The notes under the pieces were generated by a model. It saw only the letters and a list, made by a program, of their open reading frames with translations, did not search any database and was not told where the DNA came from. The position numbers and the translations under genes were made by a program. From the NCBI GenBank assembly GCA_017650085.1, contig JAGCFN010000019.1, positions 3,879 through 67,878 of the forward strand: 64,000 bases of DNA. Reading direction: 5' to 3'. Below are positions 1,381-58,257 of the stretch, piece after piece. This DNA is from Bacteroidaceae bacterium (GTDB lineage Bacteria > Bacteroidota > Bacteroidia > Bacteroidales > Bacteroidaceae). Position 1 is the stretch's first letter, and each line of letters starts with the position of its first letter.

Positions 1381-1461
1381 GCAGACAAAGCATCAGCCAC
1401 TCGCAGTCGCCTTTCAGGTCAACTATTTAATATATATTAAGAAAGTTTAACTTAAATTGCG

Positions 1462-1602
1462 TAAAGCGTTACACGTATCATATACGCAAAACACAGACCC
1501 CCTACAAGGGAAAAGAAATTCTATTATTATATTAATATAATAATAGACTTATATTTTTGGGAGGCGTTACATATTTTCGTATATGATACGTGTAACGCTT
1601 TA
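1462..1602. repeat. 141-bp nested palindrome downstream of DUF4248 copy 1
   Basis: Perfect 25-bp inverted arms: taaagcgttacacgtatcatatacg (1462..1486) and its reverse complement (1578..1602). They enclose a perfect 28-bp AT palindrome, tctattattatattaatataataataga (1520..1547). Confidence 0.95.
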
Positions 1603-1612
1603 AGCCACCACG

Positions 1613-1804
1613 CTATGCAACCTCGGCGTAGTCGATGCCGTATTCGTCACACACCCACTTCACAGCCCTGGGAGGGAGCATTTTGCTTTTTGGCTTCACG
1701 CCAAATTGTTCGAGGTGCGAATTATTCTCTTTGAGCCAGCGCCAAAAAGTTGTGCGGCTCACTCCTGCAGCGTCTGCAAGGTCGGATTTATACATGCTTT
1801 TCAT
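1613..1804 (-). CDS. DUF4248-like small helix-turn-helix protein (63 aa), copy 1
   Basis: 63-aa ORF MKSMYKSDLADAAGVSRTTFWRWLKE..LPPRAVKWVCDEYGIDYAEVA. About 59% identical (37/63 by eye) to the ORF at 35007..35198. A TAAATTTG -7 box lies 17 nt upstream. Confidence 0.8.
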   Translation of the reverse strand: MKSMYKSDLADAAGVSRTTFWRWLKENNSHLEQFGVKPKSKMLPPRAVKWVCDEYGIDYAEVA

Positions 1805-1820
1805 AGTCCTTATTTTTCTG

Positions 1821-1828
1821 CAAATTTA
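1821..1828 (-). promoter_or_regulatory. Bacteroidota -7 box TAAATTTG for DUF4248 copy 1
   Basis: Matches the TAnnTTTG consensus; 17 nt upstream of the ATG. Confidence 0.6.
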
Positions 1829-1913
1829 CGAAAAAATATTGGCATTTGCAAGTTTATTGTTATTTATCTTTTCAGATTGTTTCAGTGCGTTTCAACGCCT
1901 CGGAAAGATGTCG

Positions 1914-1921
1914 TACCTTTG
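1914..1921 (+). promoter_or_regulatory. orphan -7 box TACCTTTG directed into array A
   Basis: It lies within the 15-mer atgtcgtacctttgt, which is identical at 35397..35411. The next CDS (2308) has its own box at 2256. Confidence 0.5.
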
Positions 1922-2013
1922 TGCTGGATTTAGGAATCCATCACGAGTCTGCTTTCGCTCGGGATAGCAAATCCGCGGCTTGCTCTCCTCTCGCTAAAAC
2001 GCAGACTTGTAGC

Positions 2014-2142
2014 GTGATTCAAAACATCACACGTGAAAGTGGCCAATTTCACACGTGAAGTTTGCAAATTACAAACGTGACGATGCGAAACGTAACACTA
2101 TACGAAGGCCAACGTAACACTATACAATCGCAATCGTAAAAG
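2014..2142. repeat. 22-bp quasi-palindromic tandem array A (about 6 units)
   Basis: Units: gtgattcaaaacatcacac / gtgaaagtggccaatttcacac / gtgaagtttgcaaattacaaac / gtgacgatgcgaaacgtaacac / tatacgaaggccaacgtaacac / tatacaatcgcaatcgtaaaag. Confidence 0.9.
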
Positions 2143-2255
2143 CCAGAGATGCTAAACTTAAAACCAACCCCTAAACACTAAACCACCTTGCGCAGACTCC
2201 GTCTGTTCTGAACAAAATTTCTTCCGTATTTCTTTGCAGGTAAGAGAGATTTTCG

Positions 2256-2307: not shown

Positions 2308-3252
2308 ATGAAAAAGATTCTATTCTCCCTAATGTTGCTTTGCTGCGCCATTGCGGGCAAAAGTCAGAGCGATGTGTACACTGCGACTCTACAGCACGGC
2401 GACGAAGTGAAGGTCTTCCATGGCACAAGTGCGCTCAGCCAGGCCGTTGGAGCGGCAGAGGATGGTGATGCCATCAACCTGTCTGCTGGCAATTTCAGCG
2501 GAGTGAATATAACCAAGGCAGTGAGTGTTTATGGTGCCGGTTTCGAGGAAGACGAAGCGACGGGCACGTATGTCACACTAGTGACTAGCGCACTGTCGAT
2601 CAACAGTTCCAACGTACGTCTGGAAGGACTGCGTGTGAATGGTGGCATAAACTTTGGGGCGGTAAGTGACATTCTCATTACGAAATGCTACTGGGGCGGT
2701 TCCTCTTTTTACAATCCGGCATCTGTGATAGAGATTTCCAAGTGTGTAATCATCGGCGCTTTCGATTGTAAAAGCCAAAACATACAAGGCTTACGGGTAC
2801 TCAACAGCGTGATAGGTGCAGTAAGAAACGTGACCATTGACAGCCGTGTGCAGGTTGACCACTGCATGGTCTACGAAGACTACGGCGGAGCTTTGCTCTA
2901 TACGAACTCCCTGCTGGTAAACGGCTATGTGGGCAGTTCTGCAATTGCAGAGAACAGTACTGTCCACAATTGTGTCATCATAAGCAATATCCCCGCCAAC
3001 CGTGTTGTGGAAAACTGCTATGTGGTGCCCTTGGCGGAAATATTTGCCGATGGAGAGAACTACAACTACTCTCCAGAACGCACCTACGAGCTGAAACAGC
3101 CAGAAGTGTGGATCGGTACCGACGGCACACAATGCGGACTCCATGGCGGCGATGGCTGGAGCAAAGTCCCCGCAACTCCGGTCCTCAAGAACATGACAGT
3201 GGAGGTGGATGGCTCGACTCTGAAGGTTAACTATGAGGCTCAGACGAGATAG
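2308..3252 (+). CDS. secreted hypothetical protein (signal peptide; possible beta-helix fold)
   Basis: ATG start with signal peptide MKKILFSLMLLCCAIAGKSQS. A TATTTTTG -7 box lies at 2256. No catalytic motif recognised. Confidence 0.7.
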   Translation: MKKILFSLMLLCCAIAGKSQSDVYTATLQHGDEVKVFHGTSALSQAVGAAEDGDAINLSAGNFSGVNITKAVSVYGAGFEEDEATGTYVTLVTSALSINSSNVRLEGLRVNGGINFGAVSDILITKCYWGGSSFYNPASVIEISKCVIIGAFDCKSQNIQGLRVLNSVIGAVRNVTIDSRVQVDHCMVYEDYGGALLYTNSLLVNGYVGSSAIAENSTVHNCVIISNIPANRVVENCYVVPLAEIFADGENYNYSPERTYELKQPEVWIGTDGTQCGLHGGDGWSKVPATPVLKNMTVEVDGSTLKVNYEAQTR

Positions 3253-3273: not shown

Positions 3274-4683
3274 ATGACTGTAAGAATTAGATATTTATCT
3301 GTTGCGGCCGTGTTAGCGATATGCTCGTCTGCGCTTGCACAGAAAACCGTTGAACGCCAGGAATACTGGATAGACGGCGATGTGGCAGGCAGCACAACGA
3401 TTGCTCCGGGAGCACAGATTGACCTGACGGGGCAGAATGTCGGGCCGCATACCCTGACCGTTCGCATCTGCGATAGCGAGGGAGTGTGGAGCAGTCCTGT
3501 GACGCGTTACTTCGTGAAGGCTTCGGTTCCAGGCACTTCCGCCACAACTATTGCTCAATGCGAGTATTGGATAGACGGCAAGGTGGATGAGCGCCAAACC
3601 ATTTCCGATGGGGCTATAATCCCCATGGACGACCTGCCTGTAGGTCCGCACACCATAACGGTCCGCACAAAGGACGACCTCAATGTGTGGAGCGCTCCCG
3701 TCACCCGTTACTTCATAAAAGCTTCGGTTCCAGGCCCTTCTGCTACAACTATCGCTCAATGCGAGTATTGGATAGACGGCAAGGTGGATGAGCGCCAAGC
3801 CATTTCCGACGGGGCTATAATCCCCATGGACGACCTGCCTGTAGGTCCGCACACCATAACGGTTCGCACAAAGGACGACCTCAATGTGTGGAGCAGTCCC
3901 GTCACCCGCTACTTCGTGAAAGCTTCGGTTCCAGGCCCTTCTGCCACAACTATCGTTCAATGCGAGTATTGGATAGACGGCAAGGCCGACGAGCGTCAGA
4001 GCATTTCCGACGGAGCAATAATCCCCATGGACGACCTGATTGTAGGTCCGCACACCATAACGGTTCGCACAAAAGACGACCTCGGTGTGTGGAGCAGTCC
4101 CGTCACCCGCTACTTCGTGAAAGGCTCCACCCCCTCAGCACCCGCTACGACCATTGCTCTGTGCGAATACTGGTTCGACGGTAACACGGCCGAGCGAAAG
4201 AAAGTGGAAGACTGTGGCGAACTGGTGCTCGAGAATCTCGACCCAGGCGTACACACTATCACCGTTCGCTCGAAGGACAACCTGAATGTGTGGAGCAGTC
4301 CCGTGACGCGATACTTTGTCATTACGGGTCAGAAGGCTCCGGCAGAGATAACCCAATGCGTCTACTGGTTCGACAACGATGCAGAACACACATACACCGC
4401 GCCTCTGAGCGGAAGTGAAGGTATGGCCGAGATATCCGTCTTCGGCATGTTGGCGGTAGGCGAGCACACCATCACATGGGCCGTTGTCGACTCGGAAGGC
4501 CGCATGAGCAACACCATGACGGAGAAATTCTACATCATTGTGGATGGAATGAAGACCATTGACAACGGACAGTTGAGAATTGACGACGACTCGTGGTACA
4601 CGCTTTCGGGTGTGAAACTGAACGCCAAACCCACCGAAACAGGCATTTACATCTGGAAGGGTAAGAAAGTGATACTCAAGTAA
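3274..4683 (+). CDS. T9SS-sorted surface protein built from six ~67-aa tandem modules
   Basis: Signal peptide MTVRIRYLSVAAVLAICSSALAQ. Repeated module ..CEYWIDGK..GPHTITVRTKDDLNVWSSPVTRYF... C-terminal YTLSGVKLNAKPTETGIYIWKGKKVILK is T9SS-CTD-like. Confidence 0.8.
   Translation: MTVRIRYLSVAAVLAICSSALAQKTVERQEYWIDGDVAGSTTIAPGAQIDLTGQNVGPHTLTVRICDSEGVWSSPVTRYFVKASVPGTSATTIAQCEYWIDGKVDERQTISDGAIIPMDDLPVGPHTITVRTKDDLNVWSAPVTRYFIKASVPGPSATTIAQCEYWIDGKVDERQAISDGAIIPMDDLPVGPHTITVRTKDDLNVWSSPVTRYFVKASVPGPSATTIVQCEYWIDGKADERQSISDGAIIPMDDLIVGPHTITVRTKDDLGVWSSPVTRYFVKGSTPSAPATTIALCEYWFDGNTAERKKVEDCGELVLENLDPGVHTITVRSKDNLNVWSSPVTRYFVITGQKAPAEITQCVYWFDNDAEHTYTAPLSGSEGMAEISVFGMLAVGEHTITWAVVDSEGRMSNTMTEKFYIIVDGMKTIDNGQLRIDDDSWYTLSGVKLNAKPTETGIYIWKGKKVILK
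3541..4143 (+). repeat. three near-identical 201-bp (67-codon) tandem repeats inside CDS 3274..4683
   Basis: Copies start at 3541, 3742 and 3943. The landmark gcttcggttcc recurs at 3520, 3721 and 3922. Diverged copies flank them on both sides. Confidence 0.9.
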
Positions 4684-4723: not shown

Positions 4724-5377
4724 TTACTCTACAATCTGGCCGTCCTTCATGGAGATTTTCCGGTCAGCAAGGTCAGCCAGTTGTTCGTCGTGAGTGACAA
4801 TGACAAAGGTCTGCCCCATCTGGTCGCGAAGGTCAAAGAAGAGGCGATGCAACTCCTGCTTGTTCTGCGTGTCGAGCGAACCGCTCGGCTCGTCGGCGAA
4901 CACCACATCGGGCTTGTTGACGAGTGCACGGGCAACTGCAACCCTCTGTTTCTCACCTCCGGAAAGCTCGTTTGGCTTGTGCGAAGCACGGTCCGAAAGT
5001 CCCATGAATGCGAGGAGTTCCTCTGCACGACGCTTTGCCTCTTTCCTCGATGTGCCCCCGATGAGGGCCGGCATCATGACATTCTCGAGCGCAGTGAACT
5101 CGGGGAGGAGCTGATGGAACTGGAAGACAAAGCCCATGTGCTTATTGCGGAAGGCGGAACGCTTGGCATCACCGAGTTTGCTGACATCGATTCCGTCGAT
5201 GATGACACTGCCACTGTCAGCCTTATCGAGTGTGCCCATTATCTGCAGGAGGGTGGTCTTGCCTGCTCCACTCGGCCCGACAATGCTGACGATTTTGCCT
5301 TTTTCAATGTCCAAATCAATGCCCTTCAGCACTTCCAGGCTGCCAAAACTCTTCTTTATGTTGCGGATTTCTATCAT
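4724..5377 (-). CDS. lolD: ABC transporter ATP-binding protein, LolD-like
   Basis: Walker [10 protein letters not shown], signature LSGGEKQR, Walker [10 protein letters not shown] prefer the ATG at 5377 ([12 protein letters not shown]), which sits 1 nt after the upstream stop. The track ORF starts at a TTG at 5422. Confidence 0.9.
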
Positions 5378-5378
5378 T

Positions 5379-7493
5379 TTATTGTCTGTAAAGGATTTTT
5401 CTGCGATTTCCATTTGTGTCAACTACAATGTAGATGCCCCCTGAAGGATGCTCCACGATTCGCCCCTGGAGGTCGTAGATGCGCTCTTTTCCTTTGGGAT
5501 GGGCGGAGGGAGAACCCATTCCGTCGTAATGCGACTTGAGGTACTTCAGCCCCGCCTCTGCATCTATTTCACCATAGCCGTAGTCGTTATTGGGGTATGC
5601 GAGCAAGGGGTCGTGGCGGTGACAAGTGGCTTCGAATGCCGCGATGACCTGTTCGTGAGTCAAGGTGGGGATTGCCTCGAGCCATTGCGCTATGATGCCA
5701 GCCACGATGGGGCATGCCATGCTGGTCCCTCTCTGCGAAGACCATCTGTACTCACGCCCCCGGAAGGTGGACATGGCGACATCGAAGTCGGTCATGTAGT
5801 CACCCGGATTCATCTCGGAATAGTAACTGTTGAAAGCCGCGACAATGTTTGTGCCTGGAGCAAGGACATCGGGCTTGACAAGACCTGCCAGCGTTGGTCC
5901 TCTGCTACTATAGGTCGCGACCTCTCCGTCGCTGCCCCTGTCGTAGCTCATGTAAGCGCCTTTCAGGTTGTAGAAGCCTTTCCTGTAGGAGGTGGCGCCA
6001 ACGCAAATGACATTGGGGTCTGTGGCAGGATAGAGGATATTGTGCGACTTCTGGGCATCCTGATAGTCGGGATATGAAGATTGATTCACGAGCCAACCTA
6101 TCTCCTGGAACGCCTCCACTTCTGCTTCTTCACCGCTGATGGACATTCCCATCTGCACAGAACTGAGCACACCACCGCCTATCTTCTTGATCACAACATC
6201 TGTGACAAGCTGAGTGGAATCGTAGCAGGAGGGATAACTGCCAAACCGAAGTTCGAATGTCAGGCTCCCCGCTTTGATGGTATCCACGAGGAGGCTGTCC
6301 TCTGTGGCAAGGATTTCATCCAAAGGGACTTCCCTGCTGGAGAACTTCTCTGTGGGAGAGCCCATGAAATCTATGCTGACCGCAAAGTCTCCACGACTCC
6401 GCAACATCATATACGTAGTGGAACCCGTGGGCAGAATGAGTGCCGCAACCCGTTGCTTCCCCACAGGTTTGTGCAGATATGTCCCGTAGTTGCTCTGATT
6501 GCCCGCAGCCGTACAGATGAGACGCCCAGGCCGAACCAGACTGTCGAGCACAGTGCTGTAAAGTTGCGCCTCGCCCCACAAGTCCTCGTGCGAGCCTTCG
6601 CTGAAACTGATGACACAAGGCTTGTTCACCCTGTCCGCATACCGGAAGATGTATTCAAAGCCAAGCAGGTCGACTGCGGAACCATAGAAGTCCCAAAGGC
6701 TATCGGGAATAAGTTCCTTGTCATCCGTTACTGCATTGGAGACGAGACATAAATCTGCGTCTGGGGCCATACCCATGTAGGGCGAATCATAACCGCTCCC
6801 TGCAGCCGTGCTGGCAGTATGAGTGCCATGAAACTGCAGTCGGCTGTCCGTAGAACAAGCCTTTGCGAGGATACTCTTGCTTGTCGTATAGGAAGTTCCT
6901 ATGGGCAGATCCGACACTTCATCAGTTCCTTGTCCCTCATAATCAAGCATGTCCCAAAAAGAACGGATGCGATATGTGCTGAGGTCCCGGCTATAGAAAG
7001 AAGGATTGGTCAAGTCGAACCCGATATCCATCACACCCACCACAACACCTTTTCCAGTATAGGCGGAGCGATTGGGTGTGGCTGTGCGGAGCAAGTCAGA
7101 GCGTGTGATGATGGCAGAGGTGTCGGTCTGAGCCTCGCAAACCTTGCCGTTCTCGATGCGCAAGACTTCCTTCCGAAGCGAAAGAGGAGCCAGTTCTGCT
7201 TTAGGAATGCTGACTGCATAGATGTTCCCCCAATGTGAGAAGATGCGGCAATCGTGCCTGCCGAGCACTTCTTCGTCATTGGTCTGGACAAGAGTAAGCA
7301 TCCGACGAGGGTTCTTTTCCCTGACCTTTGTTCTTTGAGTCACATTTCCAGTCTCCTGTTGCAAGACTTCATACCTGACCATAGGCGACATCTTGTCGAA
7401 TCTGGGGCGTTGTGCCTCGGCCAAGAAAGGCAGAAGAACTGCCAACAAGACAACTGTCGAGCGACGGGCCGTGAAGAACAATCTTCGAATCAA
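5379..7493 (-). CDS. alternative model: S8 family peptidase (T9SS cargo) translated as its own cistron from TTG 7493
   Basis: An in-frame TTG (7493..7491) or ATT immediately precedes the signal-peptide-like segment. The first ATG (..DKMSPM..) lies after that segment and would delete it. Confidence 0.35.
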
Positions 7494-9765: not shown

Positions 9766-9910
9766 GTGAAGTTTGAAAAGTTCACGTGTGAAGTTGGCAA
9801 AGTTCACGTGTGAAGTTGGCGATTTACTAGTGTGAAGTTTGCAATTTACTAGTGTGAAGTTTGCAATTTACTAGTGTGAAGTTTGCAATTTACTAGTGTG
9901 AAGTTTTGCA
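9766..9910. repeat. 22-bp tandem array B (6.6 units, three of them identical)
   Basis: Units: gtgaagtttgaaaagttcacgt / gtgaagttggcaaagttcacgt / gtgaagttggcgatttactagt / gtgaagtttgcaatttactagt x3 / gtgaagttttgca. Confidence 0.95.
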
Positions 9911-9956
9911 TCCCTCTATTTGACATTTGTCAAAAACACTCGCCAAAAACAAAAAA

Positions 9957-9984
9957 CTCTAAACTCCAAACCCTAAACTCTAAA
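9957..9984. repeat. 7-bp tandem repeat CTCTAAA-like x4 upstream of the asd promoter
   Basis: ctctaaa ctccaaa ccctaaa ctctaaa. Confidence 0.8.
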
Positions 9985-9993
9985 CTTTTTTCG

Positions 9994-10001: not shown

Positions 10002-10050
10002 CAGCGCAATTAAATTCATAATTCTTAACTCTTAATTCTTATCTATAAAG

Positions 10051-15699: not shown

Positions 15700-15855
15700 A
15701 TGAAATATTTAGCACCTGCAATGAAGGTTGAAGAGGCTCAGGTTGTCAACATGTTGGCAGAGAGCCTGAAGATAGACTCAGAGATTAAGGTTGACGGAAG
15801 CCAAGGCTTGGCCAAGGAAAACTTCGCTTGGGACATCTGGAACACAGAAGACTAA
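15700..15855 (+). CDS. candidate small protein (51 aa), unknown function
   Basis: Found by hand; it is below the ORF-track cutoff. ATG with an A-rich leader. Sequence MKYLAPAMKVEEAQVVNMLAESLKIDSEIKVDGSQGLAKENFAWDIWNTED. A strong terminator hairpin follows at 15898..15936. Confidence 0.35.
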   Translation: MKYLAPAMKVEEAQVVNMLAESLKIDSEIKVDGSQGLAKENFAWDIWNTED

Positions 15856-15897
15856 TCGTCTCGCTCCACTAGTCCTGTCAACTGACAGAACATAGAT

Positions 15898-15936
15898 AAT
15901 CCCCGATGCACGAAAGTGTGTCGGGGATTGTTGTTT
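15898..15936 (+). terminator. rho-independent terminator after the small ORF 15700..15855
   Basis: 9-bp stem aatccccga / tcggggatt followed by gttgttt. Confidence 0.75.
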
Positions 15937-15945
15937 AAGGTAGTT

Positions 15946-16080
15946 GGAAAACTTCACGTGGGATGATTCAAAACATCACGTGTGACGATTGCAATTTACT
16001 AGTGTGACGATTGCAATTTACTAGTGTGACGATTGCAATCTTCACGTTTGAAGTTTGCGATTTACTAGTGCAACGTTTTG
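15946..16080. repeat. 22-bp tandem array C (about 6 units)
   Basis: Units: ..gggatgattcaaaacatcacgt / gtgacgattgcaatttactagt x2 / gtgacgattgcaatcttcacgt / ttgaagtttgcgatttactagt / gcaacgttttg. The array ends 1 nt before the stop of the convergent gene 16082..17437. Confidence 0.95.
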
Positions 16081-16081
16081 A

Positions 16082-17437
16082 TTATCCTCTAGGGTTGCTG
16101 AAAGTCGTAGTACTGCAAACCCTTCCTGTATAGATGTTATGGATGGTGACAACGAGCTTTCCGTCCTTCACTTCGCCATCTATCACAGTCGGGAAGTGCC
16201 CTTCGTTCTTGCCCGTCATGTTAGGTCCGCCCCCCACTATCTGCATCCATTTATGCTCTTCATTCGGCAAATCCAACCGATAGACATGTTGATGAGCTGT
16301 AATCAAGAGCTGACATTTTGCTTCTTCGAGCAGCGGTCCCCAGAGTTTGGAACAAGTCCTTTGCCACTCTGCGAAATCGCCTTCATGCTTATCATCCACA
16401 TCAGCAGGGAAAAGGTCACCTGGATTCACTTCTGGACGAGGGTCGTAAAGTGGAATGTGACAAAATGCAACGAGATACGGAGCACTCGCTATCTCTGGTT
16501 GTTTGAGTGCATCTCGAAGCCATTCTCGTTGGGCAACCCGATAAGGTTCACTCACAAAAAGGTTGCAGAACCTGGGGTTCGTATCCAGCTTATCCTCCGC
16601 AGTATCGAGTCCGACGAGTGCGATATCTCCCATCCTGACTGCAAAGTTTCTACCCAAATCCCAGTCTCGAGGCTGACGTTCCTCAGGCTGACGATACATC
16701 CAAATGCGCTCAAGATGGCGGTTTGCCAAGCCTCTGCTGTCGTGATTGCCTGGACAGAATAGGTATGGAATATTAGCCGCGAAGTCTTTTCGCTCTATCT
16801 CGGGCTTGAAGAAGATGCGCTTCTGGGCTGCTATCGTCTCTTCTGTATTGCAGGCGTCTCCATTCCAGATGACACAACTGGGCTGCAGTTCCATCACTTT
16901 ATTTATGGTAGGATTGACGGCTTTCCAAGAGGCATGAGTGTCATTGATGACGCAAAAATGCCCTTTCGCCCCTTCGCCTGCAGTTCGGAAAGTGTATATC
17001 TGAGACTTCTCCTCGTTGCCCGTGATGCGGATATGATAGCCGTCCTTGTACTCTATGCGGTCTGCGCCTATCCTATAATAATATAATGTATAGGGTTTCA
17101 AGCCAGTCAAACGGACATGAATGGCTTCATTGTCCATTCCTGAAACGCGATAACCGCCACACCACACCTTCTTGCCGTCGCTCAGGTCGGGTTTCTCTCC
17201 ATAGATGACATAACCGTTTGCCCAGTCTGTCACGCTGAAAGCAATGCCCATACTGGTTGCAGCATAGTTCTGCAAGACAGGTTCGCTGTCGATGAGCGAC
17301 TCGGCTTTCTTCCCCTCGTTCCCAGTCTTGCTCCCTTCTTCAGCAGGTAGCAAACTCTCTGCAGCCTTGACTTCAGTAGCAAGACCACTCGTTGCGGCAA
17401 CTATGGCTGCGTTTCGTAGAAACTCACGTCTTTTCAT
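16082..17437 (-). CDS. Tat-exported metallophosphoesterase (purple-acid-phosphatase-like)
   Basis: Twin-arginine signal MKRREFLRNAAIVAATSGLATEVKAA from the ATG at 17437. Motifs GDACN and GNHD. Confidence 0.85.
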   Translation of the reverse strand: MKRREFLRNAAIVAATSGLATEVKAAESLLPAEEGSKTGNEGKKAESLIDSEPVLQNYAATSMGIAFSVTDWANGYVIYGEKPDLSDGKKVWCGGYRVSGMDNEAIHVRLTGLKPYTLYYYRIGADRIEYKDGYHIRITGNEEKSQIYTFRTAGEGAKGHFCVINDTHASWKAVNPTINKVMELQPSCVIWNGDACNTEETIAAQKRIFFKPEIERKDFAANIPYLFCPGNHDSRGLANRHLERIWMYRQPEERQPRDWDLGRNFAVRMGDIALVGLDTAEDKLDTNPRFCNLFVSEPYRVAQREWLRDALKQPEIASAPYLVAFCHIPLYDPRPEVNPGDLFPADVDDKHEGDFAEWQRTCSKLWGPLLEEAKCQLLITAHQHVYRLDLPNEEHKWMQIVGGGPNMTGKNEGHFPTVIDGEVKDGKLVVTIHNIYTGRVCSTTTFSNPRG

Positions 17438-22553: not shown

Positions 22554-22555
22554 AA

Positions 22556-22669
22556 AAACATAACGTGCCAAGTCGCCAAACTTCACGTGTGTCGTTGGGA
22601 AACTTCACGTGTGATGTTGGCGAACTTCACGTGTGTCGTTGGCAAACTTCACGTGTGAAGTATGGCAAC
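22556..22669. repeat. 22-bp tandem array D (about 5 units)
   Basis: Units: gtgccaagtcgccaaacttcacgt / gtgtcgttgggaaacttcacgt / gtgatgttggcgaacttcacgt / gtgtcgttggcaaacttcacgt / gtgaagtatggcaac. The array starts 3 nt after the uxaC stop. Confidence 0.95.
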
Positions 22670-26582: not shown

Positions 26583-26703
26583 GAAAACGTAACACGTTAA
26601 GTTGCCAAACATATAGTGTTACGATTGCAAACGTATAGTGTTACGATTGCAAATGACTAACGTGACGATTGCAAACATCAAACGTGACGATTGGCAACGA
26701 CAC
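26583..26703. repeat. 22-bp tandem array E (about 5 units)
   Basis: Units: gttaagttgccaaacatatagt / gttacgattgcaaacgtatagt / gttacgattgcaaatgactaac / gtgacgattgcaaacatcaaac / gtgacgattggcaacgacac. The array starts directly after the pmbA stop. Confidence 0.95.
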
Positions 26704-26780
26704 TGCCCACGTTTTCAGACTTCCCTCGAACAGTTCAAAAGAAAAACTAGTTTTCCTTTTGCTTTTCGCTCTTTTATTCG

Positions 26781-29929: not shown

Positions 29930-30508
29930 ACGACTTATGTCGTGAACTTTGCCTTCGACTTTTTGTCTCTGTTCACGAGTCAGTTCGCTTGTCTGCAGCT
30001 CGAAAGTGACAGTCTCGCTGTTTTCTGAAAGCGAGGCTTTGATGAGCGGCAAAGCTTGAAGAGCAAGACGGACGTCAATATCCACATCTTCGCTTAGGAA
30101 CTCATCTACGGAAGGACGCTCAACCGTTTGTGGCAACTCGTTCCAGGAAGTGTCAAAAAGGCGGATTTGACTGTCGGAAGCAGGGGCATTATAGGTCTGC
30201 ACCATGCAAAAAGTGCTGTCGTTGAGCAGTCGCATCTCGACGATACAATGTTTGGAAAGTTGCAGTTTGAGGTATCTTTCGCTCAGGATAAGCAGCTCCG
30301 AATGGTCCTCGAACTTGTTCTTCACATCAGCCTTCATATTGTTCTCGCGGAAGTCAATCTGGTCGAGGCGGTTGTTCTTGGTCAAAAGAGGGAAAATGCT
30401 GTCTGGAGCCTCGGCATAGATGTCGCGAATGCGAGTTTGGGCGTTCAATATTGAACATTGAACATTGAACATTGAAAGGATGAACAAGAAAAAAACCAAT
30501 CGCCTCAT
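29918..30508 (-). CDS. DUF3256-like secreted protein
   Basis: Signal peptide MRRLVFFLFILSMFNVQCSILNAQ. The block ..APDSIFPLLTKNNRLDQIDFRENNMKADVKNKF.. matches my recollection of the DUF3256 family. Confidence 0.7.
   Translation of the reverse strand: MRRLVFFLFILSMFNVQCSILNAQTRIRDIYAEAPDSIFPLLTKNNRLDQIDFRENNMKADVKNKFEDHSELLILSERYLKLQLSKHCIVEMRLLNDSTFCMVQTYNAPASDSQIRLFDTSWNELPQTVERPSVDEFLSEDVDIDVRLALQALPLIKASLSENSETVTFELQTSELTREQRQKVEGKVHDISRLLP
30450..30477. repeat. heptanucleotide repeat ATTGAAC x3 plus ATTGAAA inside the DUF3256 signal-peptide coding region
   Basis: attgaac attgaac attgaac attgaaa. It overlaps the 14-bp palindrome gttcaatattgaac (30443..30456). Confidence 0.9.
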
Positions 30509-34577: not shown

Positions 34578-34793
34578 CGAAAAAGCAGGCAAAGGACAAA
34601 GAAAATGCCTGGATTTTTCATTAAGTTTTCAATCAGGCAGGGCTTCAACGATTTTGGCGAAGGGTCAAATTTTGCGATGAAATGGGCGTTTTTTGCAACT
34701 TCGGAGCATTTTTGCCGTGAGAGTTACGAAATGTTTGTGACAAAATGACAAATAATGCCAAATAATTTTCATCAGTTTCTTTCACATGGTAAC

Positions 34794-35004
34794 AGCGTAA
34801 AGCGTATCATTTACGCAAAATATGATACACCCCCTCAGGAATGAACCTCTATTATTATATAATATAATAATAGACCTCAAAATCCTATATGCGTATCACT
34901 TTTTTCGTATCGTTTACGCTTTACGCTACTATTTTCCTGGAAACGCCGTTCTGGAGGCGCTTTGGTAAAAACGTATCACGTATCATTTACGCGAAATATG
35001 ATAC
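34794..35004. repeat. nested palindrome module downstream of DUF4248 copy 2
   Basis: 13-bp arms agcgtaaagcgta (34794..34806) and tacgctttacgct (34915..34927). Central 27-bp palindrome tctattattatataatataataataga (34848..34874). The hairpin motif gtatcatttacgcRaaatatgatac occurs twice (34804..34828 and 34980..35004). Confidence 0.9.
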
Positions 35005-35006
35005 GC

Positions 35007-35198
35007 TTACGCCACTTTAGGGAAGTCAATTCCATACTCGCGGCAAATCCACTCCACGGCTCGGGGAGGCAGAAGCTGTTTTCTGGGACTGACTCCCAAT
35101 TCCATCAGTTTGTTTTTGTTACTGCTCAGCCATCGCTGAAAGGTTCTGTAATTCACACCGGCAGCATCGGCCAGTTCGTATTTGTATGCACTTTTCAT
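35007..35198 (-). CDS. DUF4248-like small helix-turn-helix protein (63 aa), copy 2
   Basis: MKSAYKYELADAAGVNYRTFQRWLSS..LPPRAVEWICREYGIDFPKVA; paralog of 1613..1804. Confidence 0.8.
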   Translation of the reverse strand: MKSAYKYELADAAGVNYRTFQRWLSSNKNKLMELGVSPRKQLLPPRAVEWICREYGIDFPKVA

Positions 35199-35222
35199 GG
35201 TATTTTTTTGTTTTTGACAACC

Positions 35223-35286
35223 GACTACAGACTACAGACTACAGATTTGTTCCTTGTCCGTTGACTGTTGTCCGTTGACTGTTGTC
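35223..35286. repeat. micro-repeats in the 5' leader of DUF4248 copy 2
   Basis: gactaca x3 (35223..35243) and ttgtccgttgactg x2.4 (35254..35286). This segment is absent from the copy 1 leader. Confidence 0.85.
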
Positions 35287-35298
35287 TTTTTTTGTTTA

Positions 35299-35306
35299 CA
35301 AAATTA
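35299..35306 (-). promoter_or_regulatory. -7 box TAATTTTG for DUF4248 copy 2
   Basis: Homologous position to 1821..1828 (context acgaaaaaat conserved). The leader is ~100 nt because of inserted micro-repeats. Confidence 0.5.
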
Positions 35307-35403
35307 CGAAAAAATCTTGACATTTGCAAGACTTTCTACAACTAATAATAGACAATAATAGACAACGTCAGACAAAGACAGACAACGCCCTCCAAGAATG
35401 TCG

Positions 35404-35411
35404 TACCTTTG
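35404..35411 (+). promoter_or_regulatory. orphan -7 box TACCTTTG directed into array F
   Basis: Same 15-mer atgtcgtacctttgt as at 1907..1921. Array F starts 5 nt downstream. No + strand CDS follows. Confidence 0.5.
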
Positions 35412-35415
35412 TATC

Positions 35416-35490
35416 GTAATTCAAAACAACACACGTGAAAGTAGGCAATTTCACACGTGAAGTTTGCGAATTACACACGTGACGATTCCC
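35416..35490. repeat. 22-bp tandem array F (about 3.5 units), paralogous to the first half of array A
   Basis: Units: gtaattcaaaacaacacac / gtgaaagtaggcaatttcacac / gtgaagtttgcgaattacacac / gtgacgattccc. About 90% identical (by eye) to 2014..2084. Confidence 0.9.
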
Positions 35491-37058: not shown

Positions 37059-37075
37059 ACCGGATGTGGTTATTT

Positions 37076-37103
37076 CAATCTTAAATCTTCAATCTTCAAT
37101 TAT
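37076..37103. repeat. 7-bp tandem repeat (CAATCTT-like, 3-4 copies) in the permease-rhaD spacer
   Basis: caatctt aaatctt caatctt caattat. Confidence 0.75.
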
Positions 37104-38482
37104 CATTCTTCTCCATAACGTTCACTAGTAATCTGTTCGAGCGATTTGCCGCGCGTATTCGGGCAACCCAGCACACCTATCACGAGGGAGAGCAACAGGA
37201 GCGCTATCATGCAATAGGCCGCAAGAGTGAAGCCCTCGCCGTTCTCGCCATAAATGAAGGTGAAGACCAGTCCCCAAAGCGCTGAGAGGCCTCGAACGAT
37301 AAAGAACATCAGTCCCTGGGCACCTGCGCGGAACTTGGCTGGGAAGAGCTCGGACCCCCAGAGCGCATAGAAAATCTGCACGCCCAAACCGCCATTGATG
37401 CCCCACAGAATCGAGAAGGCCCAAAGGCTGCCGATTCCGCTCACCCCACGGATGATGACCAGCCATGTGGCAAGGCCTGCAAGCAAGCCGAGCACATAAA
37501 CCAATTTGTGAGATATCCGGTCAATAAAGAATGAAAGACAGAACGTTATGACCACCACAACAACCCAACCGATGCAACTCAGCATGTTGGCATATTCGTT
37601 GCTCAATCCGCCTGCCGTTTCGTAGATGTGCGGCTGGAAGAAACCCATCACGGAGGCCACGAGATTCCACGTCAAATAGATGCTGGCAAGGTAAGCGACC
37701 GTGCGGACTGCAACCTTGTTGGTGAAGAGGAGTTTGATGTTCTCCCAGATGCTGCTCTTGTCCTTCTCTCGGCTCTCCTCGAAGGCGGCACTCTCATCCA
37801 GTTGGCGCTGCAAAGTCCAAGCCACAAAGGCCACGACAAAAAGTGTGAAGAAGACCACACGCGAACTGAACACCTGGACAACCTCGACCGGCGCATCTGT
37901 TCCGATGAAAGCATAAGCAACGCTTTCAACAAGGCCATAGAGGTAACCTCCAGGGGCGAACAGCATGCCGAAGAGCAGGATAACCATCGGCCCGAAGCCC
38001 CACGACATTTGCGAGATGCAGATATTCCTGCCGCGCTTGTTCACCTCCGAACTCTCGGAGATATATGTCCACGATGCCGGTACGCCAATGCCCACGGAAA
38101 TGCCTGTCACAAGGAAGCCACAAAGCAGCATCGGGAAGTTCACAGAGCACATAATCAGCAAGACGCCAAGCATATAGACCAAAAGATTGTAGGTGAAGAT
38201 GAACTTCCGTCCGAACTTGTCGGCAAGGAAGCCACCAATGATGGCGCCTATTGCAGCGCCTAACGCATTGGCACTGATAGCGTTAAGCCAGCCAAGATGC
38301 ATCTCGCTCAGTCCGAGATAGTTCTGCCAGAGCGTAATGCCGCTCGCTCCGGCCACAATAGCGCCAGCATCCAGATAATTGTTCAACGAGACCGCCAGGG
38401 TGCTCTTGAGAGACCCACCCCTTCCCCTCCCTGCGAGGGAGGGAGCGTTTACCTCTGCTGCTTGAGTTTTTTTATTGTTCAT
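37103..38482 (-). CDS. MFS sugar porter, probable L-rhamnose permease
   Basis: 12-TM MFS with the sugar-porter motif GGFLADKFGRK. It sits between rhaA and rhaD. The first ~20 codons are encoded by a GC-rich repeat element. Confidence 0.85.
   Translation of the reverse strand: MNNKKTQAAEVNAPSLAGRGRGGSLKSTLAVSLNNYLDAGAIVAGASGITLWQNYLGLSEMHLGWLNAISANALGAAIGAIIGGFLADKFGRKFIFTYNLLVYMLGVLLIMCSVNFPMLLCGFLVTGISVGIGVPASWTYISESSEVNKRGRNICISQMSWGFGPMVILLFGMLFAPGGYLYGLVESVAYAFIGTDAPVEVVQVFSSRVVFFTLFVVAFVAWTLQRQLDESAAFEESREKDKSSIWENIKLLFTNKVAVRTVAYLASIYLTWNLVASVMGFFQPHIYETAGGLSNEYANMLSCIGWVVVVVITFCLSFFIDRISHKLVYVLGLLAGLATWLVIIRGVSGIGSLWAFSILWGINGGLGVQIFYALWGSELFPAKFRAGAQGLMFFIVRGLSALWGLVFTFIYGENGEGFTLAAYCMIALLLLSLVIGVLGCPNTRGKSLEQITSERYGEE
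38412..38444. repeat. GC-rich hairpin element, inner copy (codons ~13-24 of the MFS permease)
   Basis: gacccaccccttcccctccctgcgagggaggga, with internal hairpin ccctccct-gcga-gggaggg. Confidence 0.85.
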
Positions 38483-38514
38483 ATTTCAAATTTCTTATTT
38501 CTTATTACTAATTA

Positions 38515-41404: not shown

Positions 41405-41507
41405 ACAGAAACGACACACGTGAAGTTCCCAAACGTGACACGTGAAGTTTGCAAACATCAAACGTTAAAATGGCAAACATCAAACGTTAAGTTTGCGATT
41501 TGACTGT
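41405..41507. repeat. 22-bp tandem array G (about 4.5 units)
   Basis: Units: gtgaagttcccaaacgtgacac / gtgaagtttgcaaacatcaaac / gttaaaatggcaaacatcaaac / gttaagtttgcgatttgactgt. Confidence 0.9.
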
Positions 41508-41563: not shown

Positions 41564-41637
41564 AGCCTCTTGTCGGATTCGAACCAACGACCCCGAGATT
41601 ACAAATCACGTGCTCTGGCCAACTGAGCTAAAGAGGC
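41564..41637 (-). tRNA. tRNA-Thr (anticodon TGT)
   Basis: Hand-folded cloverleaf: acceptor GCCTCTT/AAGAGGC, D arm GCTC-AGTTGGCCA-GAGC, anticodon loop TTTGTAA, T arm GTTGG-TTCGAAT-CCGAC. CCA is not encoded. One T-T mismatch in the anticodon stem. Confidence 0.9.
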
Positions 41638-41737
41638 GGGTGGGAAAGCTTGCTATATCGCGCCGCTACAACCTGCTGCCCTTGCTGCGGTCAAGCCCTG
41701 GGGGATTCACAAGGAGCATGCCGTATAGGACTTTCCC
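41638..41737 (-). ncRNA. candidate ~100-nt structured RNA abutting the 5' end of tRNA-Thr (identity unknown)
   Basis: A TACCTTTG -7 box lies ~15 nt upstream (41753..41760). The ends pair (5' GGGAAAG / 3' CTTTCCC, then CTATA/TATAG), giving a long imperfect hairpin. The 3' end ..CCCACCC recalls E. coli 4.5S RNA, but I could not find the conserved SRP domain IV motif. Confidence 0.3.
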
Positions 41738-41752
41738 ATGATTTTGCGGGTG

Positions 41753-41760: not shown

Positions 41761-41854
41761 CAACATATAATTCAAAAATCAAAATTATAAAATTCAAAAT
41801 TGTATGATAAGGCTTTTTTTTTGCCTCTTTATACATTATTTATATTATTATTTC

Positions 41855-51330: not shown

Positions 51331-51460
51331 TAAAACACAGCACGTCAACTTTGCAATCGTCACACGTGAAAATGCCCGATGACACACGTGAAAATTGCAA
51401 TCGTCACACGTGAAAACCTCAATCGCCACGTGCTTAAACGACCAACTTCACACGCGAAGC
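51331..51460. repeat. 22-bp tandem array H (about 5.5 units)
   Basis: Units: gtcaactttgcaatcgtcacac / gtgaaaatgcccgatgacacac / gtgaaaattgcaatcgtcacac / gtgaaaacctcaatcgccac / gtgcttaaacgaccaacttcacac. Confidence 0.9.
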
Positions 51461-51601: not shown

Positions 51602-52297
51602 ATGAAGAAAGCGCTATACATCTTAATCCCCTTCCTCGCCGCAATCCTCTTCGCTTCCTGCAAGAACAGCGAAACGTATGCCCAGCAGAAAGACAAGGAG
51701 TACAAGGCCATCAAGTCGTTTCTGGATCGTGAAGTCGTGATTCGGGACGAGGACGGCAGCGTGCTCTGCAACGTGGGGAAAATAACGCCAATCAGCGAGG
51801 AACAGTTCCTCCTGCAAGATTCTACGACCGACCTCGAAAAGAACGAATATGTGCTCTTCCAGAACACAGGTGTCTACATGCAGATTGTGCGTAAGGGCAC
51901 GGGCGAGAAACTGGAACGGGGCAAAACGGCCCGCGTCATCTGCCGATTCATAGAATTCAACATTCTGGGCGACAGCATCCAGCTCCGCAACGACGTGTAC
52001 TTCTGGCACTCCAGCCCCGACATCATGAAGATTTCGAACAACTACGGCAGCTTCGCAGCCAACTTCGACACAGAGTCGAACGGCGGCGGTGCCATGTACA
52101 ACACGTATGGCAGCACGAGCGTTCCGAGCGGTTGGCTCGTCCCCTTCTCCTACATCCGCATCGGACGCCAGGAATCGGCCGATGAGGGCATAGCAAAGGT
52201 CAGACTCATCGTGCCGCACACCGAGGGCCAAACGAGCGCTACAGGCAATGTTTATCCCTGCTTCTACGAACTCACCTTCCAGAAGATGCGCGATTAG
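51602..52297 (+). CDS. hypothetical lipoprotein
   Basis: Lipobox ILFASC after MKKALYILIPFLAA. A TACCTTTG box lies at 51571. The track ORF N-terminus (51395-) runs through a repeat array. Confidence 0.7.
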   Translation: MKKALYILIPFLAAILFASCKNSETYAQQKDKEYKAIKSFLDREVVIRDEDGSVLCNVGKITPISEEQFLLQDSTTDLEKNEYVLFQNTGVYMQIVRKGTGEKLERGKTARVICRFIEFNILGDSIQLRNDVYFWHSSPDIMKISNNYGSFAANFDTESNGGGAMYNTYGSTSVPSGWLVPFSYIRIGRQESADEGIAKVRLIVPHTEGQTSATGNVYPCFYELTFQKMRD

Positions 52298-52353
52298 TTT
52301 ACCGTTTACCGCTTACAGCTTACCGTAAGCCGTAAGCCCATAAGCCGTAAGCC
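52298..52353. repeat. intercistronic palindromic micro-repeat filling the whole lipoprotein-hemW spacer
   Basis: tttaccg x2, cttaca, gcttac, then cgtaagc, cgtaagc, ccataagc, cgtaagc. gcttacAgcttac faces gtaagcCgtaagc. Confidence 0.85.
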
Positions 52354-58100: not shown

Positions 58101-58109
58101 GGGACGACT

Positions 58110-58186
58110 CCAAACGCAACACGCCTAGATTGCAAACATAACGTGCCACGTTGGCAAACTTCAAACGTGTCGTTGGCAATCGTCAC
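58110..58186. repeat. 22-bp tandem array I (about 3.5 degenerate units)
   Basis: Units: gcctagattgcaaacataac / gtgccacgttggcaaacttcaaac / gtgtcgttggcaatcgtcac. The array starts 10 nt after the response-regulator stop. Confidence 0.8.
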
Positions 58187-58215
58187 TGCAGTTGTTGAAA
58201 ACTGAAACAAACAGC

Positions 58216-58257
58216 ACCGCCTCGAAAGGTATTTCTTCCGAGGCGGTTATTTATTTT
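58216..58257 (+). terminator. terminator between the convergent RR and OMP genes
   Basis: 9-bp stem accgcctcg / cgaggcggt followed by tatttatttt. Confidence 0.75.

Follow-up and report, generated by a model that had tools for sequence, protein, structure and literature searches.

Non-coding repeats are rarely kept by bacterial genomes, and the families that persist, such as the repetitive extragenic palindromes and bacterial interspersed mosaic elements (REP/BIME), are sites for gyrase or IHF, take part in the control of RNA decay, or are partners of domesticated transposases; in REPIN, the repeats flank the single-copy RAYT gene, which encodes the cognate Y1 transposase. Dispersed intergenic tandem repeats at fixed loci, with a copy number that varies between strains, are also known from Mycobacterium tuberculosis as mycobacterial interspersed repetitive unit-variable-number tandem repeats (MIRU-VNTR). 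In other systems, including the metboxes of MetJ, the heptads of omega and the 11-bp iterons of ParR-parC, short sites at helical-turn spacing, in head-to-tail or inverted arrangement, are read cooperatively as duplex DNA by symmetric dimers polymerising along the array. A conserved unpaired tetranucleotide, GTAG or CGTC, is found at one end of the REP/BIME palindrome (PMC3733652), and BrickBuilt, from Porphyromonas gingivalis, is a 23-nt minisatellite of the type of the miniature inverted-repeat transposable elements (MITE) (PMC4596501). The subject of this work is a set of nine intergenic tandem arrays with a 22-bp period, present in a 64-kb stretch (the window) of contig JAGCFN010000019.1 of a Bacteroidaceae bacterium.

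These arrays are a lineage-specific family of dispersed intergenic minisatellites. Taking into account that their symmetry resides only in the consensus, that they are indifferent to orientation, that compensatory changes are not seen and that their primary sequence is conserved, it is proposed that they act as duplex DNA rather than as RNA, and, with a probability of about 0.4, that they are phased sites for a putative symmetric binding protein at gene ends, whose copy number is altered by slippage. In kind, they join the bacterial interspersed extragenic repeats (REP/BIME, MIRU, BrickBuilt), yet each family that could be tested has defining traits that the arrays lack.

The arrays, their unit and their distribution

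The window is ordinary Bacteroidales chromosome with 50% G+C, and carries asd, uxaC, pmbA, rhaB, nrnA, bamK, rprY, the gene for the Bacteroidales signal recognition particle (SRP) RNA and a tRNA gene. An earlier annotation made from the letters of the window alone (the sequence-only reading) had described head-to-tail arrays in nine intergenic regions, and all nine are seen in register when laid out in lines of 22 nt. Tandem Repeats Finder (TRF) reports period-22 arrays in eight of these regions (at 2027, 9766, 15948, 22577, 26596, 35429, 41409 and 51341), while the ninth (58110), which is shorter and more degenerate, with 3-4 units in register, lies under its threshold. The earlier figure of ~46 units is approached when degenerate edge units are included (~45), the well-formed ones being ~36. 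A position-weight scan built from the units likewise gave ~36 good units and, outside the nine regions, only a few weak stray matches. The skeleton GTGNNGNTNGCNANNNNCAC, with <=1 mismatch, matches the window 29 times, against 1.18 +/- 1.34 expected from 100 dinucleotide shuffles (0/100 reach 29), and 27 of the 29 matches fall within the arrays. Since independent metagenome assemblies and metagenome-assembled genomes (MAGs) show the same arrays at the same places, these are not assembly artefacts. As had been stated, no array of the window enters a credible coding sequence.

It had also been advised that period-22 arrays be sought in related genomes, and they are present in 12 of them. A scan of one genome per species (185,579 species), with a 42-bit pattern comprising one full unit and both linkers, gave 64 loci, of which 63 are from 12 MAGs of the ruminant gut, under the labels Bacteroidales, Prevotellaceae or Bacteroidaceae (RUG12460, RGIG10220, RUG12173, RUG11599, RUG12391, RUG606, RGIG4268, RGIG7250, RGIG2699, RGIG9433, RGIG3434 and RGIG9965). 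The remaining locus is a chance match in a deltaproteobacterium without an array, ~0.3 such matches having been calculated as expected. True arrays occur at 62 loci, 15 of which have a second one, giving 86 arrays with those of the window; the sequence examined, made up of the window and ~480 kb of fragments around the array loci of relatives, amounts to 541 kb. The nearest relative among the species representatives is RUG12460, with 93-95% identity to the window, whose array density (nine in 64 kb, ~1 per 7 kb) is above that of the 62 other loci. The same pattern had no match in 2.9 million viral contigs, and an origin from phages or plasmids was set aside on this result, plasmid and phage BLAST collections lying outside that search.

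At the gathering threshold, Rfam finds only the SRP RNA and the tRNA in the whole window, and permissive scans of arrays B and D gave only chance-level matches (<=19 bits). A literature search for intergenic tandem or palindromic repeats of Prevotella/Bacteroidales returned nothing relevant. Thus, with no match in Rfam, in the literature searched or to BrickBuilt, the statement that this is not a described repeat family is upheld, and the family is apparently undescribed and restricted to a small group of uncultured rumen Prevotella-like bacteria.

The 331 interior units pooled from the 86 arrays have the consensus GTGAAGTTTGCAAACTTCAC followed by a 2-nt linker, GT or AC. Unit positions 1-4, 8, 10, 11, 13 and 17-20 are conserved at 78-95%, and variable words (AAG, ACG, TCG, ATG, AAA or TAA) occupy positions 5-7 and 14-16. 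The 22-bp unit is best described as two oppositely oriented 11-bp half-sites with the consensus (C/T)GTGAAGTTTG, so that there is one half-site per helical turn. The palindromic archetype with dyad centres 11 bp apart, proposed in the sequence-only reading, is therefore fair for the consensus but not for real units, in which, on average, only 5.35 of 8 arm positions are complementary. In the same way, the uniform choice of words that had been claimed for each array holds only in part, arrays A, C, E, G and I being internally mixed. Arrays are of ~3-12 units; those at the edges are degenerate, those in the interior are often identical to one another, and a recurrent terminal unit, CACTG-CAGTCGTT or CACTG-CCCA(C/T)GTTTT, closes about a quarter of the arrays.

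A separate observation concerns a variant of the core, TGGCAA, with G at unit position 9; in the nine arrays of the window it is on the + strand 14 times, against three occurrences of its mirror TTGCCA. The direction mostly agrees between the two arrays of one contig (seven clear cases, by inspection of per-array counts). No tie of this asymmetry to linker type or gene direction was found, and its sign agrees with that of the local GC skew in 26 of 50 loci, and thus there is no link to GC skew at the 8-kb scale. The asymmetry might reflect replication direction.

The units adjoin one another without spacers, at a 22-bp period and in nine short arrays among housekeeping genes in 64 kb, and a CRISPR array was rejected; CRISPR repeats are of 24-48 bp, split by unique spacers of similar size, and often accompanied by cas genes.

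Gene ends, transcripts and promoters

Of the 73 arrays with simple gene calls on both sides, 28 are in convergent gaps (56 such gaps in the sequence examined), 38 in tandem, same-strand ones (258) and seven in divergent ones (52). The quartiles of the distance from stop codon to array are 15, 40 and 90 nt, and, in the window, the stops of uxaC, pmbA and rprY are followed at 0-10 nt by arrays D, E and I, in agreement with what had been remarked from the sequence. On the other side, the -7 promoter box of the downstream gene (TAnnTTTG) is at least ~55 nt away, without a sharp peak, two motif matches at 2 and 24 nt from an array end having been taken as the array's own edge units; a fixed spacing to this box was considered and discarded, only the lower bound being found. 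The placement of arrays at gene ends and in convergent gaps suggests a local role where transcription units end.

Such a role could be exerted through RNA. Thus, it had been suggested that transcribed arrays fold into rows of hairpins, stabilising mRNA 3' ends or terminating transcription as REP/BIME do. Many arrays start within 8-30 nt of a stop codon, and therefore must be transcribed, and no scan-type terminator is found downstream of uxaC, pmbA and nrnA, as had been noted. More generally, such a terminator is present in the 100 nt after the array at 0/52 gene ends with an array at <=40 nt, compared with ~20% of array-free gene ends, although the 0/52 figure is partly a limit of the method: only loops of <=8 nt were allowed, and the real hairpin beyond array I escaped the scan. 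Moreover, some terminal units hold a small hairpin followed by a T-run (e.g., AACGACACTGCAGTCGTT-TTTATT in L056), and arrays D, B and C have fold z-scores from -5.2 to -2.7.

The pairing itself, however, is not maintained. The within-unit complementarity given above compares with 5.28 when arms are randomly re-paired (z = 1.5; -0.1 for pairing across the linker). Nor is there a preference for G.U (29) over A.C (45) among the arm mismatches of the sense strand, most mismatches being of transversion type. A stable stem-loop with maintained pairing, a defining trait of REP/BIME, is therefore not found in the units, and those recently expanded, GTGAAGTTTGCAATTTACTAGT in array B and TAGTAAATTGCGAACGTCACAC in array I, are not palindromic. 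The fold energy is strong only for array D (z = -5.2), moderate for B, C and E, and like that of shuffles in the remaining five of the nine arrays (A, F, G, H and I; z from +0.4 to -1.9). Neither does the orientation follow transcription, the linker being 19:19 relative to the adjoining gene, and the terminal unit being proximal to that gene 10 times and distal four times. Linker type (GT/AC) as an orientation marker tied to transcription was accordingly rejected, its 22:8 bias in tandem gaps by one count becoming 19:19 and 64:64 by stricter counts.

With regard to termination, a consensus terminator scan gave no stem plus T-run at arrays C, D, E, G and H (A, B and F were outside the scan) and one weak 5-pair match in array I (58144-58156, - strand); a G+C-rich stem-loop with a T-run, oriented with the gene, was thus not seen in the arrays scanned. 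Hairpin terminators exist separately from the arrays: C and G lie beyond one and I before one, and a terminator-like hairpin stands between stop and array in 18 of the 51 cases with an array >40 nt from the stop. Taken together, the arms that do not covary, the even orientation and the shuffle-like folding of most arrays make an RNA role of the REP/BIME type improbable.

In the same surroundings, a G+C-rich perfect hairpin, GCGTGCCGTG-loop-CACGGCACGC, was observed immediately beside arrays and nowhere else, and at two independent orthologous sites (L014 3019, L044 5726, L051 7929, L020 7753, L030 5645 and L065 7694). In appearance it resembles a unit variant whose arms are fully complementary, and it may be the real terminator at those sites.

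The likeness of the arrays to REP/BIME nevertheless extends to several traits, since both are high-copy, extragenic and enriched at 3' ends, also between convergent genes, and both have a palindromic consensus, units in alternating orientation, vertical inheritance and long life. The arrays differ in being strictly head-to-tail at 22 bp, without variable linkers, in arms that are not kept complementary, in the lack of abundant identical copies and of the GTAG/CGTC tag, and in their occurrence in only a few rumen Bacteroidales MAGs. Indeed, GTAG is present in ~1% of units, and CGTC/GACG, in ~14%, is confined to the word ACGA/TCGT, at positions 3 and 15 of the unit.

A promoter function has also been weighed. 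Units with GTT in place of GTG create exact Bacteroidetes -7 boxes, e.g., GTTAAGTTTGC at 41486, copy number differs between strains, and two arrays, B and that of locus L067 (6568-6833, with 12 units the longest seen), sit between divergent genes. Yet exact boxes within units are exceptional, divergent gaps hold only 7/73 arrays, most arrays adjoin 3' ends, and the recognisable boxes of the downstream genes lie 55-170 nt past the arrays, with no fixed spacing. Promoters are a very improbable explanation.

Inheritance, mobility and the nature of the sites

Arrays are inherited at their sites. Orthologues of D and E are found in RUG12460 (L061), of I in RGIG10220, and of C in RGIG7250 (L027), where the array is made of different units, and at one locus the array is shared by four species. 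Length differences between orthologues or strains are multiples of 22 (22 or 44 bp). Thus, array E has one unit fewer in L061, array B has 5.5 or 6.5 units among contigs with identical Asd, and array I has 4, 5, 6 or 7 units among contigs with identical RprY, its edge units being conserved and its interior units variable. Fixed loci with whole-unit differences between strains make these arrays strain-variable minisatellites (VNTR loci), as in MIRU-VNTR. MIRU units, unlike those described here, are of 46-101 bp, non-palindromic and oriented with the operon, their small open reading frames (ORFs) overlapping the flanking genes.

In 13 pairs of orthologous loci, which are not phylogenetically independent and in which the alignment of repeats can inflate identity, identity was 96.0% at codon positions 1+2, 93.5% in arrays, 87.8% in other intergenic DNA and 77.3% at third codon positions. 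In several of these pairs arrays are 98-100% identical, with third positions at 57-66%; examples are L030/L065 (98% vs 64%) and L040/L041 (98.7% vs 65.5%).

The spread of the family has left few traces. Arrays A and F, at unrelated loci, are 91% identical over 76 nt and across three different units, and therefore multi-unit blocks can be copied; the other arrays of one genome have a median identity of 73%, with no identical copies. The site orthologous to that of array D is empty in L027 (RGIG7250), and no target-site duplication is visible there, this being the one empty site seen. In L053, a three-unit array (4798-4860) lies in frame inside mnmG/gidA, a conserved tRNA-modification gene whose ORF stays open, and amounts to a 17-residue insertion (KTQTSHVNFA..TRELCQL) with respect to solved MnmG structures. 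In-frame insertion into conserved genes is likewise known for the Rickettsia palindromic elements (RPE) and for intragenic REPs, although RPE are single elements of 100-150 bp and not tandem 22-bp units.

Another reading is that the minisatellite is carried in a BrickBuilt-type non-autonomous transposon (MITE), or that a RAYT transposase mobilises it as a REP/REPIN family. BrickBuilt is an intergenic tandem repeat from the same order, REPs are high-copy extragenic palindromes that are often tandemly reiterated, and the array of L067 is bounded by a 35-nt inverted repeat (6522-6557, 6874-6910). This last feature is explained by the upstream regions of two divergent promoters (TACCTTTG and TAACTTTG), and arrays of one genome have no common leader or tail. 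In an all-against-all BLAST of 200-nt array flanks, only orthologous loci of different genomes matched, with nothing beyond degenerate units within one genome. A recurrent paralogous or transposase-like gene near arrays was not found in the 541 kb, no genome-wide search aimed at RAYT having been made. Besides, an invariant REP tag is lacking, hairpins are not maintained, their arms showing no covariation, and there are no identical master copies. Without identical copies or shared flanks, the family is not a recently active transposon, and a mobile element of either kind is very improbable.

Identity with BrickBuilt itself was likewise rejected, as neither unit matches nor a leader or tail were seen: its unit AGAYCATARTATCCTCTCRTRTG, with <=2 mismatches, has 0 matches in the 541 kb, and matches to its IS5-like terminal inverted repeat (TIR), GAGACCTTTGCA, are explained by the ordinary Bacteroidetes promoter box. 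Both families consist of intergenic, spacerless arrays of 22-23 nt, with imperfect copies, strain-variable number and stable locations. The BrickBuilt unit, however, is unrelated and non-palindromic, and its leader and tail segments with IS5-like TIRs are absent here; it has 19 copies per genome, compared with the array density of the window, and lies 49-591 nt from coding sequences, whereas the arrays often touch the stop codon.

The main rival to the binding-site proposal is a tolerated selfish or neutral minisatellite without host function, seeded rarely by insertion or block copying, modified by slippage, and surviving only where it is harmless. Harmless sites would be those just after stops and away from promoters, and arrays do extend from the stop codon until ~55-65 nt remain to the following promoter box. 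The empty site of array D, the in-frame array in mnmG, which is typical of invading repeats such as RPE, the block identity of A and F, and the variation in copy number between strains are all to be expected from such an element, as is the fact that arrays B, D and I of the window are no better conserved than their flanks. Against it, the average conservation of arrays is far above that of synonymous sites and of the remaining intergenic DNA, and they persist at the same site across species in which synonymous sites are near saturation. Nor are there identical or near-identical copies that would mark ongoing spread, transposase-like paralogues in the 541 kb around the arrays, or the target-site duplication mentioned above. 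On balance, this rival is only a little less probable than the binding sites.

With regard to the binding-site proposal, a symmetric and sequence-specific protein, either dimeric or filament-forming, would bind side by side on one face of the helix, with the array as its phased platform. The likely effect would be local, either as a barrier or roadblock to read-through transcription or as a site for topology or a nucleoid protein, BIME-2, a duplex-DNA site for gyrase in Escherichia coli, being the proposed functional analogy. Copy number would shift through replication slippage or unequal exchange in the array interior, and new arrays would arise rarely, by insertion or copying of multi-unit blocks. 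The second idea of the sequence-only reading, a putative phased binding of a dimeric protein to duplex DNA, agrees with these data. Support for cooperative binding is indirect, and comes from the helical-turn phasing, the consensus-only symmetry, the independence of orientation and the conservation. The sites of MetJ, omega and ParR would be similar in design, although they occur once or a few times per replicon, beside the genes that are controlled or partitioned, and not at scores of gene ends.

Several points weigh against this proposal. The binding protein is a putative one, and arrays filling the space from stop to promoter are also expected of a tolerated selfish element. Conservation is uneven, the rate of change in arrays B, D and I roughly matching or exceeding that of their flanks, and strains differ in copy number; the limits of the 13 locus pairs have been given above. 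A simple half-site model would predict substitutions concentrated at the positions that are variable in the logo, a pattern that is not seen among orthologues (4.9% vs 6.4%, p = 0.31; with 66 substitutions, a comparison of low power). Finally, word usage differs somewhat between the two half-sites when units are oriented by linker, and therefore the 22-bp unit is not perfectly symmetric and has a weak polarity.

The window and its significance for rumen Bacteroidales

Coordinates of the arrays and of the features observed around them are collected in Table 1.

Table 1. Arrays and other features of the 64-kb window, in window coordinates.
Feature	Position	Strand	Description
Array A	2014..2164	.	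~6.5 units, AC linkers, mixed words, degenerate right edge; TRF period 22, in register; between a 63-aa helix-turn-helix (HTH) gene module and gene 2308-3252(+)
Array B	9766..9910	.	6.6 units, including four identical GTGAAGTTTGCAATTTACTAGT; TRF score 186; divergent region between a 1407-1410-aa Na/H-exchanger-peptidase S8 gene (-) and asd (+)
Array C	15938..16083	.	~6 units, convergent gap, past the hairpin terminator of the left-hand small ORF; right end 12 nt before the stop (16082) of a metallophosphatase gene (-), or a degenerate last unit at that stop
Intrinsic-terminator-like hairpin	15898..15929	+	AATCCCCGATGCAC...GTGTGTCGGGGATT; just left of array C, separate from it; conserved in L027
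Array D	22554..22669	.	~5 units, GT linkers; start directly 3' of uxaC stop; right end ~65 nt upstream of next promoter box TACCTTTG
Array E	26583..26718	.	~5.5 units, GT and AC linkers mixed; start directly 3' of pmbA stop; terminal unit CACTG-CCCACGTTTTC
Array F	35416..35490	.	~3.3 units, paralogue of array A; starts 4 nt past promoter-like box TACCTTTG
Array G	41405..41507	.	~4 units; between the rhaB (-) start region and the terminator after the tRNA/SRP RNA genes (-)
Array H	51331..51460	.	~5 degenerate units, between nrnA stop and bamK; TRF 64-73% matches
Array I	58104..58202	.	~4 units; starts 3 nt after rprY stop; precedes a strong hairpin terminator; terminal unit CACTG-CAGTTGTT
Strong hairpin	58216..58247	.	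13 pairs on the - strand; between array I and convergent gene; likely the true terminator of this gap; conserved in L066
Module adjoining array A	1459-1922		~500-600 bp, paralogous to that at array F
Module adjoining array F	34780-35412		~500-600 bp, paralogous to that at array A
HTH genes of the modules	1613-1804; 35007-35198	-	63 aa
Perfect AT-rich palindromes of the modules	1521-1546; 34849-34873		
Inverted repeats flanking the palindrome of module A	1459-1486; 1578-1605		28 nt
Small ORF	15700-15858		~52 aa (MKYLAPAMKVEEAQ...), with its own hairpin terminator; between the gene of a 1447-aa Big_2 protein and array C; conserved in L027
Bacteroidales small SRP RNA and tRNA	41564-41744	-	SRP RNA (RF04183, 116 bits) directly adjoining the tRNA, then hairpin terminator, then array G
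Tandem heptamers	9954-9986; 10013-10041; 30450-30476; 35223-35286; 37074-37111; 38478-38506; 41769-41801; 52297-52353		AAACTCT, AATTCTT, ATTGAAC, GACTACA, TTCAATC, others
201-bp tandem repeat	3484-4316		within ORF 3274-4683(+); 3.2 copies, 91% matches; alternative period 402

The HTH proteins of the two modules beside arrays A and F are 59% identical, and the modules share a promoter-like GTCGTACCTTTGT directed towards the array. This gene was considered as one associated with the family and rejected, being absent at all 62 other array loci. Judging by position, most of the tandem heptamers are apparently just upstream of start codons or within short intergenic gaps. The 201-bp tandem repeat is probably a repeated protein domain.

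To our knowledge, no cis-regulatory or chromosome-organising elements have been described for the host bacteria, which are abundant, uncultured members of the rumen community. Taking into account that the array family is dense, conserved at its sites and devoid of the hairpin logic of REP, it may be a different solution at gene ends. A broader possibility, which at present must be considered unlikely, is that the arrays are the sites of an unrecognised clade-specific DNA-binding protein, which would coat phased platforms of 70-260 bp at the ends of scores to a few hundred genes in each genome and thereby set up boundaries genome-wide. If so, this system would provide transcriptional insulation or the management of supercoils between neighbouring and convergent genes, and it would be an independently evolved counterpart, in rumen Prevotellaceae, of the BIME-gyrase sites, read purely as duplex DNA. 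In more practical terms, the arrays probably give rise to contig breaks and to mis-called ORFs in MAGs, and can be used as ready-made strain markers (VNTRs) for rumen metagenomics.

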